Part shown: one piece after another, positions 27,502 to 37,318 of the stretch | How positions within the stretch are numbered: position 1 is the first letter of the stretch | Layout of the letters: each line of letters starts with the position of its first letter | Source of the DNA: a virus | Taxonomy: Duplodnaviria > Caudoviricetes | DNA: 64,000 nt | Direction: 5' to 3' (one strand) | Virus record (IMG/VR): IMGVR_UViG_3300005614_000001 | Coordinates: 52,929-116,928 of that record | Notes under the pieces: generated by a model | Database searches by the model: none | What the model was told of the DNA's origin: nothing | The model's input: the letters and a program-made list of their open reading frames with translations, nothing else | Program-made: the position numbers and the translations under genes

Positions 27502-30500
27502 CTAAAATAATTTGTTCTTTTTCTGAGTGAATAAGTTAAACCCGGAAGCAAATAAATTCCTTGCTCCTTGTTTCTTCTCTTTATTGAAATAATATTTGAA
27601 CCTTGGATCTGTTTCCAATGTCGTAACCTTCCCCATAGGAGCTAAGTGATCTGCCATAGCTATAGCAAGTGATGCGGCTACACAATTATGAGAAACTATA
27701 TCATTTACTGTATATGAATGATCTTCTTCTACTTCTATATTATAAACTTCTTCAGATGAGGAATAGACATCTATTGATTTTATAGGAATTATTATTCCTT
27801 CATCTATAACTCTATAGTTTTTTCTCTGAGATCTTTCCTTAAGATTTTTAAACTTCTTAGAACTACCTGGTATAGAATTCAATATTTTATTTATACCTTC
27901 TATATTTTGAATGTCCAGTCTATACTGTTCTTTTGAGTTTGGATTTTTCTGTTTATTAATATTTCCAGAACACCATATACCCTCGTCAAACATTAATCTC
28001 CTTATTTGTTTTATCAGATGTGTATATATACCAGATACCTCTATTGTTTCTCTGAAATTTATAGACCCTGGTGCCTTAGTTGATTTTTGATGACCATCTC
28101 CTTCTAAAAATCCTAATATTAATGGTAAAAGTCCTTTTGAGTTAAATAGAGGATCTTTTATAATTTTCTCCCCTCCCACTTTAATACTTATATTTTCATT
28201 TATTATATTATTAAATGTAGTGCAATTAAACTCTAAGTTGTAAGCAAATTTATCTTTCACCTTATATATTCTTGGGAGTTTTCTCTTTGATTTACATATA
28301 ATATTATCTTTTTTTAAGTGATTATAAGAGGAATATGTAATTGGAGAAAAATCATCCACTTCTTCTAAAAGAGATTTTATATATTCTGCTATATGCAACT
28401 GATTCCCCTGAAAAGTTATTCTTACAGTATTTTTATGTTTATGCCCATCAGATAAATACCATCCTAATATATATAAGTATCTCCAGTTTAAATTACACTT
28501 TTTTAAATCTTTTCTAAATGGAATTAAAAGATAATCATTCTTATTTATATCTTTTGCCTCTTTCCATTTGAGATCTCCTATTGTAAAATTTTTAAAGTAA
28601 TTTTTACCGTTACCTTTTTTTATCTCACTTATTAATAAAGGGTGATTTTCTGTACATGTAAATTCCTCAATACCTAATGGTTTAATTATATATTTATCTT
28701 TTTTGGAAACAGAGTTAAAAATATCCGTCACATTTTTGTATTTACCAGTATGTGTTAATACTCTATCCCCTATTTTTAAATTTTCTATACATTTATATCC
28801 ATCAATACAAAGAACTTTTGCCCCCTTTGTAAAACATCTATCAAAGTTCCCTGTATCATTAAACTTAATAATCTCTTCCAGGAGCATTGCATCCAATACC
28901 CTGGTTACACCAGTAACTTCTTTTATAATAGAACCTTCTTCATCCTTTTCCTGGTATATTACCTGGTCCAGGTATCTCTTTAAGCAATTATTTAAATGAT
29001 CTATTATCTTCTGTGATGAACGATGTACTCCATATTCCCTGGTAACTTGTGAATGAGGAACTACTTCTTTCAACCATTCAGGTTGACGTTCCAGGTATCT
29101 TGCATCCCCTTTTGCCTTCATATAATCTATGAAAGATATTTCATCATTTTCACATAGAGTCCTGGCATTATAAAATTTTATAAGTAATCTTGCCTGTTCA
29201 TGCCAGGTATCTTTACTATCTGGTCTTGCTACATATGAGGCTACAAACATATCCTGGAACTTATCTCCGGCTATATCATGCATTCTCTTATAAATATATA
29301 CTGCCCCAAGAGAGTCTGAATACTCTGACTTTCCCTGTCTATAAGGATCTACTCCGGCAACATACAGGCCAAATGGAGGGTTCTGCATTGGCATCTCATA
29401 TATTACTATTGGAGCATTCTTATTATCATTTGGTTTTGTTGGGAAGGAACCAACCGGGAGAGCATCTGTATGTTCAAAGATTATCTTCTCCCCATCATGT
29501 GCCAATAATACCGGGATGCCAGTTCTTCCATTTGCAAATATCCTGCCCTTCTGTGCAAGTGCTGCCTGGGTATTGAATATATTAAAAGATGCTGTAAGAA
29601 AACATTCGTCTGGAGTATAAGGATAATACATTACAGCCTTAAGATATGCCTCTTGGTCATTGGCATCTTTAGCTGTTTTACGTTCCTCATCTATTATCTT
29701 CTTAGCTTTTTCAAGATCACTCTTCTGAAAGTTAAGATTATAAAGTTCACTTTCTTCCGGGATATCTATTTGTTTTTCTTCCTTTAACCATTCCCCAAGC
29801 TTACAGTCTACTTTTGCCTCCATTCTATAACTACCTGGAAGGAATAATCCATACTTCTTTTTCTCTTCTCCAAACTCTACTGCTAAGAAATTGTAAGCTT
29901 CTGGATTATAAAATATCTTTTCTGCATCACTTCCTTTTTCAAATGCACCACCTGTACCAACCAGTAGGGGTGAGCATCTCCACCCATATGGAGATGTGAA
30001 CGCCGGGATGGCTGCCTCAAGACATCGTAGGAAAAGAAACTTTCCTATTTCATCAATTATGAATTCAGTTGCAGTAACCCCTGCTACTGCTTCTGTATTT
30101 TTACCATCATCTAAGTTACGTGGTAAAATAGTGGACCATGGTATACGATTGCCACTTTTATCTTTTATTCCTAAAGTAACCTGTCTCTTCCAATCATTTT
30201 CTATTCTACCCCATTTAAAATATGGGTGAACATTATTTAATCCTTTATCTATCTTATCAGCTATAAGTTTTAAATCCTTATCGTTACCTGCAGAGATAAT
30301 ACTTTCAGACCCCTCAAGTATTGTAGCTGCTCTCCCTATAATGGATGATTCAATCTCACTTTTGGAAAATCTTCGACTACCTACAGCGCACAACCCCTTT
30401 TTCTCTCTCCTGGCTTTTAACCTATATTCTGCAAGTTGCCATTCATTGTCTCTGAGAAGGGGCTTTCCTAATATTCTTTTTATGAACCCTGTATTTTTAT

Positions 30501-30693
30501 TCTCAAGATCCATATGTATATTCCAATGATTGGTATGCCAGTATAACCATCCATCTATGTACACTCCATTTACAAAGAATCCATTTTCTATTTTGTCTAT
30601 TTCATTCTGAAAAAAGGCATCATACTCCTCTGACTTTTCATCAGGGATGGATTTCATATTTATAAAGAACTCTTGTGTAGTTGTAAAGTCCAA
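27502..30693 (-). CDS. terL: Terminase large subunit containing an intein
   Basis: GSRRFSKS Walker A, FIIDEIGK Walker B, GTGG coupling motif, AGVDPY nuclease motif, NFDR; about 679 aa after splicing. Confidence 0.92.
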   Translation of the reverse strand: MDFTTTQEFFINMKSIPDEKSEEYDAFFQNEIDKIENGFFVNGVYIDGWLYWHTNHWNIHMDLENKNTGFIKRILGKPLLRDNEWQLAEYRLKARREKKGLCAVGSRRFSKSEIESSIIGRAATILEGSESIISAGNDKDLKLIADKIDKGLNNVHPYFKWGRIENDWKRQVTLGIKDKSGNRIPWSTILPRNLDDGKNTEAVAGVTATEFIIDEIGKFLFLRCLEAAIPAFTSPYGWRCSPLLVGTGGAFEKGSDAEKIFYNPEAYNFLAVEFGEEKKKYGLFLPGSYRMEAKVDCKLGEWLKEEKQIDIPEESELYNLNFQKSDLEKAKKIIDEERKTAKDANDQEAYLKAVMYYPYTPDECFLTASFNIFNTQAALAQKGRIFANGRTGIPVLLAHDGEKIIFEHTDALPVGSFPTKPNDNKNAPIVIYEMPMQNPPFGLYVAGVDPYRQGKSEYSDSLGAVYIYKRMHDIAGDKFQDMFVASYVARPDSKDTWHEQARLLIKFYNARTLCENDEISFIDYMKAKGDARYLERQPEWLKEVVPHSQVTREYGVHRSSQKIIDHLNNCLKRYLDQVIYQEKDEEGSIIKEVTGVTRVLDAMLLEEIIKFNDTGNFDRCFTKGAKVLCIDGYKCIENLKIGDRVLTHTGKYKNVTDIFNSVSKKDKYIIKPLGIEEFTCTENHPLLISEIKKGNGKNYFKNFTIGDLKWKEAKDINKNDYLLIPFRKDLKKCNLNWRYLYILGWYLSDGHKHKNTVRITFQGNQLHIAEYIKSLLEEVDDFSPITYSSYNHLKKDNIICKSKRKLPRIYKVKDKFAYNLEFNCTTFNNIINENISIKVGGEKIIKDPLFNSKGLLPLILGFLEGDGHQKSTKAPGSINFRETIEVSGIYTHLIKQIRRLMFDEGIWCSGNINKQKNPNSKEQYRLDIQNIEGINKILNSIPGSSKKFKNLKERSQRKNYRVIDEGIIIPIKSIDVYSSSEEVYNIEVEEDHSYTVNDIVSHNCVAASLAIAMADHLAPMGKVTTLETDPRFKYYFNKEKKQGARNLFASGFNLFTQKKNKLF
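27685..28836 (-). mobile_element. 384-aa intein with LAGLIDADG homing endonuclease in TerL
   Basis: NFDR|CFTKGAKV ... CTENHP (block B) ... LGWYLSDG / LGFLEGDG (LAGLIDADG) ... VYNIEVEEDHSY..VSHN|C; very AT-rich. Confidence 0.92.
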
Positions 30694-32460: not shown

Positions 32461-32788
32461 TTGTTTTGGTTTTTAAATATTCTATTTCTGAAGTGGCAGA
32501 TTCCAGTTTCTTTATAAGGGTGGTTCTTTTTATATCCCCTTCTTCTAAAGATTCCAGCCTGGAGAGGTAAGAAGAGATAAACTTTTCTAATAGTTCTATT
32601 CTCCTGTTTACTTTCCCCATCCTTATTTTAAACTTTCCCAGCCCTGACACTTCTATACTACTGGTAGATGACATATTATCATATACACTTTTCCATTGCC
32701 ACCTTATAACTGCATCCACTACTTCTTCCGATAGAGACAGTAGCTTTGCTGTTTGTTTAGCTTTCTGCTCCAGGGTTGAGGGTGTCAT
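32450..32788 (-). CDS. HU/IHF-like protein
   Basis: LSLSEEVVDAVI...SIEVSGLGKF. Confidence 0.65.
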   Translation of the reverse strand: MTPSTLEQKAKQTAKLLSLSEEVVDAVIRWQWKSVYDNMSSTSSIEVSGLGKFKIRMGKVNRRIELLEKFISSYLSRLESLEEGDIKRTTLIKKLESATSEIEYLKTKTNGL

Positions 32789-33137
32789 TTATTATAGTTA
32801 TTTCTATTTTAAAAGATGGAGAGGAGAAATCCGGGAGTATGATAGGATTGACCTTTATCTTTCCTTCTTTCTTTACCAGGATGTTTAACTTCTGCAGCCG
32901 GGAGCTCATATTATTAAATGAGAACTTACTGCTTTGGAATGTTCTTATAAACTCTTCCCTCACCGGGGGAGTAGTGATGGTACCATTAATTGCAGAGAAA
33001 GCAACCAGGTCTATCTCAAGTGGTTTAACCTTTATATTGTTTACTTTAAACAGTACTCCATAATACCTTTTGGCTACTTCAAACTTTGAAGGAACCTGTA
33101 TTTGTATCTTCTCTGGAGAATACTTTACTTCTTTCAT
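32757..33137 (-). CDS. Winged-helix DNA-binding protein
   Basis: NNMSSRLQKLNILVKKEGKIKVNP wHTH-like segment. Confidence 0.5.
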   Translation of the reverse strand: MKEVKYSPEKIQIQVPSKFEVAKRYYGVLFKVNNIKVKPLEIDLVAFSAINGTITTPPVREEFIRTFQSSKFSFNNMSSRLQKLNILVKKEGKIKVNPIILPDFSSPSFKIEITIINDTLNPGAES

Positions 33138-35150: not shown

Positions 35151-35216
35151 TGACAGTTGGTGTAAATAACACGCCATCCTTTGAAGATGGGGTTGTGGTT
35201 AAATCCACGCTGTCCT
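35151..35216 (+). tRNA. Atypical/degenerate tRNA-Gln(TTG)-like cloverleaf 1
   Basis: TGACAGT TG GTGT-AAATA-ACAC G CCATC-CTTTGAA-GATGG GGTT GTGG-TTAAAT-CCAC GCTGTCC T; lacks the D-loop GG and TTCG. Confidence 0.55.
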
Positions 35217-35223
35217 AAGTAAA

Positions 35224-35295
35224 CGACTGGTTGGTGTAACGTCAACATGTTGCCCCTTGAAGGCAAAGTAGCTGGTTAAACTCCAGCACCGTCCA
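35224..35295 (+). tRNA. Atypical/degenerate tRNA-Gln(TTG)-like cloverleaf 2
   Basis: GACTGGT TG GTGT-AACGTCA-ACAT G TTGCC-CCTTGAA-GGCAA AGTA GCTGG-TTAAACT-CCAGC ACCGTCCA; bulged acceptor stem, C33. Confidence 0.55.
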
Positions 35296-36057: not shown

Positions 36058-36480
36058 ATGAAAGATAAATCAACAAGATCTCCTAACATTAAGTCTTACC
36101 CTGAACATGAAAGTAACCCATTCCCTATGGATAACCTATTAGAGCAGCCTGATTATACTGTTCCTGGATTACATATAGGGGAGAAATGTGTTGCTTTTAG
36201 TAACAAGTATCCAAATGTTATGTACACCCTGGATAAGCCTGGGATGAAGGGGTTATTGTATATAACATCTAAATTAGTTATAGGGGTGCATGAAGTGTGT
36301 ATATCTCAGGTAGAATTCAACGAGTATGGTAAGTATAAACAATCTAATAGGTATGCTTACTATAAAGCTTTAGATCAGTTATTGGAGACTGGGGTTATTG
36401 CCAGGAAGAAGAATTATAATAATTGCTTCTTTGTGAACCCTGAAGTGATGCAGGCTACTGTTGAATTCTTCTATAAATAA
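36058..36480 (+). CDS. RepL-like winged-helix replication/regulatory protein
   Basis: YYKALDQLLETGVIARK...FFVNP C-terminal motif; N-terminal ESNPF. Confidence 0.65.
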   Translation: MKDKSTRSPNIKSYPEHESNPFPMDNLLEQPDYTVPGLHIGEKCVAFSNKYPNVMYTLDKPGMKGLLYITSKLVIGVHEVCISQVEFNEYGKYKQSNRYAYYKALDQLLETGVIARKKNYNNCFFVNPEVMQATVEFFYK

Positions 36481-36491
36481 CTCCTAATTAC

Positions 36492-36800
36492 ATGAAAGAT
36501 ACTGATATATATGGTATTATTTATGCTTGGGTTATGAAGAGTAAAGAAATTGAAATTGGCCCTAAAGCACTGTATGCTCTTCTCTGTACCTATAGAGAGG
36601 CATCTAATAATACCTGTTTCCCTGGAGATAGTAAGCTTGCTGAACAGCTAATGGTTGACATTAGGACTATCAGGAGATATATGCTTGCACTTCAACAAGC
36701 CAGAATAATAGAGAGAATTACTCTATTTGATCCTCACTCAGGGAAGAAAAAAAGAACCATTCTCCTTACCGATATAGTGAAATTTAAGGAAAAAGCATAG
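36492..36800 (+). CDS. HTH_36-type replication-initiator-like wHTH protein
   Basis: KALYALLCTY...TCFPGDSKLAEQLMVDIRTIRRYMLALQQARII. Confidence 0.75.
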   Translation: MKDTDIYGIIYAWVMKSKEIEIGPKALYALLCTYREASNNTCFPGDSKLAEQLMVDIRTIRRYMLALQQARIIERITLFDPHSGKKKRTILLTDIVKFKEKA

Positions 36801-36861
36801 GACATGTATGTCCTAATATATAGGACACAGGTGTCCTAAGGTATAGGACATGGGTGTCCTA
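36798..36861. repeat. Three 18-bp palindromes TAGGACA-N4-TGTCCTA at 23-bp period (iteron/operator array)
   Basis: 36798-36815, 36821-36838, 36844-36861. Confidence 0.9.
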
Positions 36862-37147
36862 TATAACATTACCATAATAACAATACAATAGAACAATACC
36901 AGGGAAAGTTTATCAAAATTTTGCAGACTGCAGGGAGCAATTTGCCTATCCCGGCAGTAAGTAGTTCCCAATAGCAGTAAATAATTATTGGTTCAAAGTA
37001 ATTCCCAACAGTCTATACTATCTGTAGGGATACTATAAGCGTCAATTCCTGGTAACTAATAAGAGATAATTACTACTATAGTATCAAAATACAACGCTTA
37101 TACTACCGGAGTAGATAGTATAGCACACAAATATTAACTTTTAGTTA

Positions 37148-37165
37148 ATGTTCCACGTGGAACAT
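37148..37165. promoter_or_regulatory. parS: parS centromere-like site
   Basis: Perfect palindrome ATGTTCCACGTGGAACAT; the core TGTTCCACGTGGAACA is the symmetric form of the bacterial chromosomal parS consensus TGTTNCACGTGAAACA. Confidence 0.85.
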
Positions 37166-37318
37166 AGTAAATTTATTCCATTTGTAGGTATTAAAAGAGC
37201 TGAATACTACGTATATAGTCTGAAATCAAACTAATTGAGTAGTTAAATAGCTACGGGTACTGATATAGTATAGCATTAACAACATATTTTTATATATTTA
37301 CACTTAAAATCAATTATT

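Follow-up and report, generated by a model that had tools for sequence, protein, structure and literature searches.

ParB-parS is among the best understood DNA-segregation systems, and a family of 16-mers constitutes the parS consensus across bacterial phyla. In the chromosomal ParB(Spo0J)-CTP systems, such as those of Bacillus subtilis and Pseudomonas aeruginosa (parS2/parS3), the site is a 16-bp inverted repeat with GTTCCAC arms, which is present in one or a few copies near the GC-skew minimum or the putative origin. On phages, to our knowledge, ParB-parS is known only where the phage also has its own ParA and ParB. Lin and Grossman reportedly showed in 1998 that a single cloned chromosomal parS stabilised unstable plasmids through the host Soj/Spo0J, one host-type site being enough in these laboratory constructs when the proteins came from the host. 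Phage-plasmids of the P1/N15 type carry a centromere-like site, presumably for unintegrated inheritance, and have their own ParA, their own ParB and their own specific parS (PMC11652158). The prototypic crAssphage has been proposed as a phage-plasmid with a persistent, non-integrated life in Bacteroidota; this proposal is based on its repL gene, and the paper that makes it describes no parS, ParB or partition system in crAssphage (PMC10983915).

Here, we report a familiar type of site where it has not been described before, namely as a recurrent and accessory orphan parS on virulent-looking phages. The window, i.e. the whole stretch of 64,000 nucleotides that was analysed, makes up the right-hand 64 kb of an IMG/VR virus genome of 116,928 bp that is complete and has direct terminal repeats. 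The palindrome that it contains has the same 16-bp inverted repeat as the chromosomal sites and resembles them in copy number and, being near the GC-skew minimum, possibly in position. It differs from them in that it lies on a virus genome without ParB and ParA, is accessory in its clade and is a site for which binding is predicted. As in P1 and N15, a centromere-like site is carried by a phage, but the site is here of the host chromosomal type and no partition genes accompany it. The mechanism proposed below is that of the plasmids of Lin and Grossman, to which the phage would provide a natural counterpart. With the prototypic crAssphage, our phage shares crAss-like kinship and a proposed unintegrated persistence in Bacteroidota, whereas the repL gene on which the phage-plasmid proposal was based is absent. 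The palindrome is an orphan host-type parS, at which host ParB most likely loads.

The earlier note on this DNA had described a perfect, fully symmetric 18-bp palindrome with a GC core in AT-rich DNA, located in the longest early intergenic gap, and all of this was confirmed. The palindrome ATGTTCCACGTGGAACAT (Table 1) is unique in the window and in the genome: a search of the window that tolerated up to 3 mismatches gave no second copy, and the 16-bp core TGTTCCACGTGGAACA remained single-copy in the 116,928-bp genome with up to 2 mismatches allowed. The surrounding gap is repeat-rich, contains inverted repeats and is made up of 60-76% A+T; the palindrome stands 26.8 kb from one end of the terminal-repeat genome. 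When compared with the chromosomal parS consensus TGTTNCACGTGNAACA, the core matches at 14/14 specified positions, and by sequence it is a canonical chromosomal-type parS. The core shares its GTTCCAC arms with the perfect parS2/3 of P. aeruginosa (PMC5961200). No clustering of parS half-sites was observed around the palindrome.

Table 1. Positions in the window of the palindrome and of the features discussed with it
Feature	Position	Strand	Remarks
Large terminase with intein	27502..30693	-	PHROG 6681 at 1.6e-95; Intein/Hint Pfam domains
Conserved 126-aa gene	32757..33137	-	BLASTP to 69 related loci; parS-like site of relatives just upstream of the homolog
Two tRNA-like elements at strand switch	35151..35295	+	Rfam tRNA, 31.5 and 39.8 bits
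102-aa winged-helix protein, directly 5' of the gap	36492..36800	+	HTH_36 / DnaD-N / replication-initiator N-domain type
Three phased palindromes TAGGACA-N4-TGTCCTA	36798..36861		23-bp period, from the stop codon of the HTH gene
Non-coding gap with the palindrome, 518 bp	36801..37318		Longest ORF-free gap of the rightward block
30-nt inverted-repeat arms	37013..37123		77% complementary; 51 nt between arms; 25 nt upstream of parS
Perfect 18-bp palindrome ATGTTCCACGTGGAACAT	37148..37165		16-bp core TGTTCCACGTGGAACA at 37149-37164

It had also been claimed that chance occurrence is very unlikely. For 18-bp palindromes in general, this is not so: three perfect ones are present in the genome, and in first-order Markov simulations the longest palindrome usually reached at least 18 bp. 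An argument for rarity from the length of the palindrome was therefore abandoned, such palindromes being common in this genome. The claim does hold for the parS match, since the first-order Markov expectation for TGTTNCACGTGNAACA matches is 3.9e-5 per genome. Moreover, the palindrome holds the only CACGTG of the genome, compared with 11 expected. The scarcity of CpG noticed earlier was equally clear, with an observed/expected ratio of 0.22 in the genome and 51 occurrences of ACGT against 372 expected; the site is thus retained in a genome otherwise depleted of CpG and CACGTG. Restriction avoidance and a CpG-directed host activity are both possibilities for the cause of the CpG depletion. The depletion is clade-wide, with observed/expected ratios of 0.20-0.35 in 9/9 complete genomes (ours and eight relatives).

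The ~117-kb phage is crAss-like, with a probable Bacteroidota-type host. In the genome, we recognised a portal, a major head protein, a large terminase (with its intein), a DNA polymerase, a DnaB-type helicase and Sak4; the portal shares 22-29% identity with its counterparts in Crassvirales, in Cellulophaga and Flavobacterium phages and in a single Leptolyngbya phage. The genes point leftward until ~35 kb of the window and rightward beyond, and the cumulative GC-skew minimum is located at this switch. Shine-Dalgarno use was seen in 6 of 85 genes, which is less than background, and the leftward genes are headed by canonical Bacteroidota promoters (TTTG ... TAnnTTTG). A Bacteroidota host is considered probable because of the crAss-like kinship, the lack of Shine-Dalgarno use and the TTTG/TAnnTTTG promoters at the junctions of relatives; an orientation-specific excess of TAnnTTTG in front of genes was not found (10 versus 13). 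We found no DNA-level relative among GenBank phages, and single-sequence scans of IMG/VR with the HTH protein and with the portal did not retrieve relatives. Concerning the tRNA-like pair at the strand switch, both elements are just above the Rfam tRNA threshold and are not called by ARAGORN, pointing to degenerate or non-canonical tRNAs.

The gap that holds the palindrome is a candidate origin or regulatory region. An Rfam search of its 518 bp matched no family. The winged-helix protein encoded directly 5' of the gap matches Pfam HTH_36 at 1.5e-6, as well as PHROG 270 'replication initiation protein' and PHROG 186 'DnaD-like helicase loader'. The phased TAGGACA-N4-TGTCCTA palindromes, which are iteron- or operator-like, seem to be the likelier cognate sites of this HTH_36 protein. 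Between these and the parS, the inverted repeat may form a cruciform at an origin or act as an RNA element; the single-strand fold z-score for positions 36990-37200 is -2.75. No canonical promoter adjoining the parS was found in our phage. The ORF at 36058-36480 was considered as RepL-like and rejected, as it has a weak DUF5487 match alone, and a search for RepL (PF05732) in six frames gave no match with E values up to 10.

To compare the phage site with the chromosomal ones, Bacteroidota genomes were gathered with a 16S probe pattern, which is a sampling device and not evidence. A perfect TGTT[C/T]CACGTG[G/A]AACA is present in 138 of the 201 sampled genomes (69%), as against 1 match overall for the reversed control. 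The sites usually number 1-3 per genome and are tightly clustered, with perfect sites ranging from 1 to 5, and HTH_ParB was found in 100 of 101 sampled genomes. On each of the Myroides and Flagellimonas chromosomes, two perfect TGTTCCACGTGGAACA sites are separated by 1.9 kb, and the form found in Chryseobacterium is TGTTTCACGTGAAACA. The Myroides pair brackets gidA/mnmG, a classical origin-proximal gene. In the comparison with host parS proposed in the earlier note, the phage core proved identical to Flavobacteriaceae sites paired around gidA. As side observations, a pair spacing of 1.9 kb recurs in many of the sampled Bacteroidota genomes, and on the Myroides chromosome ~850 kb separate the pair from the ParB gene.

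The site had further been proposed as a handle for host prediction, and this part of the proposal was not borne out. The 16-mer family is common across phyla, and the C/T and G/A variants sometimes co-occur inside one Bacteroidota genome. The A...T extension, which takes the site from 16 to 18 bp, is not common to the host sites, whose flanks vary; for this reason, the extension was rejected as a functional part of the site. We saw no similarity between the flanks of the phage site and host DNA. Because the same C/T and G/A variants are found in hosts and the A...T extension is unshared, the site says little about the host, and its value for host prediction is low.

We then turned to related phages, using the terminase as the synteny anchor that defines the clade. 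More than 3,000 terminase relatives were obtained, on contigs of 110-125 kb, and an alignment-based scan of IMG/VR gave at least 555 related contigs, with 80 loci examined. These 80 loci contain 23 parS-like sites at up to 1 mismatch, compared with 0 for the reversed control. In 50 whole related records, 20 places were found versus 2 for the control, with no more than 2 per record. The relatives therefore retain a parS-like site more than chance allows. The junction carries the core in 18 of the 59 loci with enough upstream sequence, and about one third of the large 110-125-kb clade has a parS-like site. Most of the relatives' sites lie 2.1-3.2 kb upstream of the terminase, in the intergenic region of the divergent early/late junction and directly upstream of the homolog of the conserved 126-aa gene. 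The site of our phage is located ~4 kb beyond this position, in lineage-specific DNA without homologs in the relatives' loci. In 4/4 complete site-bearing genomes, the distance from the site to the global GC-skew minimum is 54-1749 bp; this minimum coincides with the transcription strand switch, and an origin there is putative.

The distribution of the site in the clade is scattered. On the terminase tree, it is present in six lineages, ours included, our sister being without it, and its presence requires at least 4-6 gains or losses. The lineages have the 16-bp core alone in common and their flanks differ; within the core, the phage sites vary only at the C/T and G/A positions that are also variable in hosts. 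Phages of the clade can do without the site: in five complete site-less relatives, no sequence resembling parS was found at any position, and none is present in the available part of the genome of the closest relative. From the scattered presence on the tree, the sharing of the core only, the existence of site-less complete relatives and the lack of any gene tracking the site, we conclude that by sequence the site is accessory, repeatedly gained or lost, selected as a 16-mer and without a visible phage partner. A set of twelve cultured or curated crAss-like and Bacteroidota phages, which includes crAss001, DAC15, IAS virus, Cellulophaga phi17:2_18, Flavobacterium Fpv3 and Leptolyngbya Lbo-JY46 and leaves out the prototypic crAssphage, gave 0 sites at up to 1 mismatch. 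The idea that parS is a general crAss-like trait was therefore rejected.

Beyond the clade, the exact 18-mer is present in at least 120 IMG/VR contigs, whereas two composition-matched control palindromes were found in 0 and 1. Among the matches listed, the contigs range from 20 to 70% GC, some have 2-4 copies, and about half of the sites are outside any ORF of at least 70 aa. A ParB N-domain was detected, again among the matches listed, in 2 of 35 contigs of at least 30 kb (33/35 being without it) and in 1 of 18 contigs that are at least 90% complete. None of the stretches fetched around the listed 18-mer sites is related to our phage.

ParB_N, HTH_ParB and the ParA-type AAA_31 are absent from the complete phage genome. 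Nor did we find ParB_N in five relatives, among them three site-bearing genomes that are 98-100% complete. A phage-encoded ParB or ParA was rejected on these grounds. The locus thus does not have the parA and parB genes that are encoded with the site in a ParABS cassette of the P1/N15 type. Nor does it correspond to a clamp of the ParB/KorB type, in which a ParB-family gene of the phage itself goes with many copies of the palindrome, as the site is single-copy and there is no ParB gene. Compared with ParB-family clamps such as KorB-OB of plasmid RK2, the roles are swapped, our phage contributing one canonical site and no protein. A phage-plasmid replicon of the RepL type would have a RepL gene, and here none was matched in six frames.

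The identity with parS, the absence of a phage ParB or ParA and the presence of the relatives' site at an equivalent junction make a host-ParB site the best reading of the palindrome. Since the same site is found at the same junction in relatives, with no ParB gene, the host segregation machinery is most likely borrowed. If all readings that assume it are taken together, binding of host ParB at the phage site is quite likely. We prefer the reading in which host ParB loads at the site and partitions unintegrated phage DNA, and we give it, with the binding step included, about an even chance. Of the earlier proposal that the palindrome is a parS for host ParB, what stands is supported by the identity of the core, by the lack of the phage's own ParB and ParA and by the retention in relatives; its suggestion that the region enters the cell early, like that on host prediction, found no support.

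According to the preferred reading, host ParB dimers would bind the phage site after injection. The bound ParB would close as CTP-dependent clamps and spread across the neighbouring origin-like region; for binding, clamp closure and spreading we rely on established ParB biology. To the ParA gradient of the host, and possibly also to SMC, the ParB-loaded phage DNA would then resemble a chromosome origin, and unintegrated phage genomes could be positioned and passed to both daughters in a carrier-state or plasmid-like persistence. The phage would be spared partition genes, all proteins being supplied by the host. The phage-plasmid proposal for the prototypic crAssphage is a precedent for such persistence. 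Arguing against this reading are the dispensability of the site, its displacement by ~4 kb in our phage, its proximity to a promoter in the main clade and the failure to find RepL or another direct indication of plasmid-like or carrier-state life.

Host ParB might also load at the site for a different benefit. The selected effect would then be regulatory, with clamps at the early/late junction damping or timing transcription or replication initiation; once phage copies outnumber host ParB, repression would fall, which would amount to copy-number sensing. We consider this rather unlikely. In P. aeruginosa, ParB at the perfect parS3/parS4 represses the adjacent promoters (PMC5961200), and our site adjoins the initiator-like HTH gene and its iteron-like repeats. 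Furthermore, a conserved promoter of the Bacteroidota type, AAATTTGG-N19-TGTAACTTTGGGG, follows the site of the main clade at a distance of 27-130 bp, in a highly organised divergent junction in which G/C-run blocks are followed by the parS core, by hairpin-like repeats and by the promoter; this position suits a regulatory role equally well. However, in our phage no canonical promoter stands beside the site, the position of the site relative to promoters differs among lineages, and many relatives with the same junction architecture do without it.

Another explanation, which appears improbable, is that the palindrome just resembles parS and serves as an operator, to be bound by a phage protein or by some host factor that is not ParB. 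Phage control regions commonly hold palindromic operators, and the site is found 350 bp downstream of an HTH gene. This neighbouring gene, however, has its own and better-placed triple palindrome, and no homolog of it is present in the related loci that were fetched around the site. An operator would moreover go together with a co-occurring phage DNA-binding gene. No gene family is present in 4/4 site-bearing and 0/5 site-less complete genomes (BLASTP at 1e-5, a clustering that very divergent partner genes, such as those for small, fast-evolving DNA-binding proteins, may escape), and a partner gene tracking the site was rejected on the basis of these four and five genomes. The same result bears on a possibility raised in the earlier note itself, that the palindrome is a site of a phage protein unrelated to partitioning, and it speaks against it. 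The 14/14 match to parS, the fact that relatives vary only where host sites vary and the sharing of the 16-bp core alone by independent lineages also argue against an operator.

The site could act as a decoy, a reading that we hold to be quite improbable. Replicating phage DNA would provide hundreds of parS copies, diverting ParB and SMC loading from the host origin, and the phage would benefit from the disturbed segregation or organisation of the host chromosome. Given that host genomes have just 1-5 perfect sites, a modest phage copy number already outnumbers them; each phage genome has a single perfect palindrome, presumed to be of high affinity, and the exact 18-mer is widespread among unrelated ParB-less viral contigs. 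Against this, the benefit is doubtful for a phage that lyses the cell anyway, and ParB is often non-essential in bacteria (PMC5961200). A decoy also has no need for a position at the skew minimum and junction, yet this position is found in 4/4 complete genomes.

Finally, a chance match without function, or a scrap of host DNA gained by recombination, is very unlikely: many relatives do without the site and the genome commonly has palindromes this long, but the expectation is 3.9e-5, the clade holds 20-23 sites versus 0-2 in controls, at least 120 IMG/VR contigs have the exact 18-mer versus 0 and 1 for the control palindromes, the site is kept despite the strong CpG/CACGTG depletion, and its flanks are without visible similarity to host DNA.

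If host ParB does partition the phage DNA, a virus would exploit the chromosome-segregation machinery of its host for the price of 16 bp. This would offer a testable answer to the question of how non-integrating, persistent phages such as the crAss-like ones are inherited, and would open a new class of interactions between phage and host, mediated by ParB, ParA and possibly SMC. The site would then also serve as a simple sequence-based sign that a phage persists as an episome. The unrelated ParB-less phages that carry an orphan host-type parS lead us to suggest, tentatively, that centromere mimicry may be a general phage strategy, although we rate this somewhat below an even chance. If so, host ParABS/SMC would position and segregate unintegrated phage genomes, and for crAss-like phages mimicry could supply the missing partition function of the proposed plasmid-like, carrier-state persistence. 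We found no description of a phage-borne orphan parS used via host ParB in a full-text literature search. As a caution, parS is unsafe as a marker of chromosomal origin in metagenome binning, as well as for predicting hosts.

Several minor observations concern the junction and the genes near it. At the main-clade junction, there is a conserved ~50-nt block (GGAAGTACCCTCCCCTCCCATGCACAGGGGGG-like), several G5-7 runs bracket the parS, and GTAAAG...CTTTAC hairpin repeats precede the promoter; in our phage, neither the GGAAGTACCCTCCCCTCCCATGCACAGGGGGG-like block nor the G5-7 runs nor the GTAAAG...CTTTAC repeats are present. In some relatives, the near-parS motifs GGTTACACGTGAAACA and GGTTCCACGTGAAACT are conserved within the major-capsid gene and a 176-aa gene (L163:17743, L167:9690, L181:12278, L201:17705; L137:6001, L163:14707). 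Some of the relatives with these coding motifs have no junction site, and the motifs may be either a coding coincidence or relocated sites. The intein of our terminase carries Hint and homing-endonuclease domains, whereas the terminase of most relatives is intein-free and about 675 aa long, and a few relatives have other inteins.
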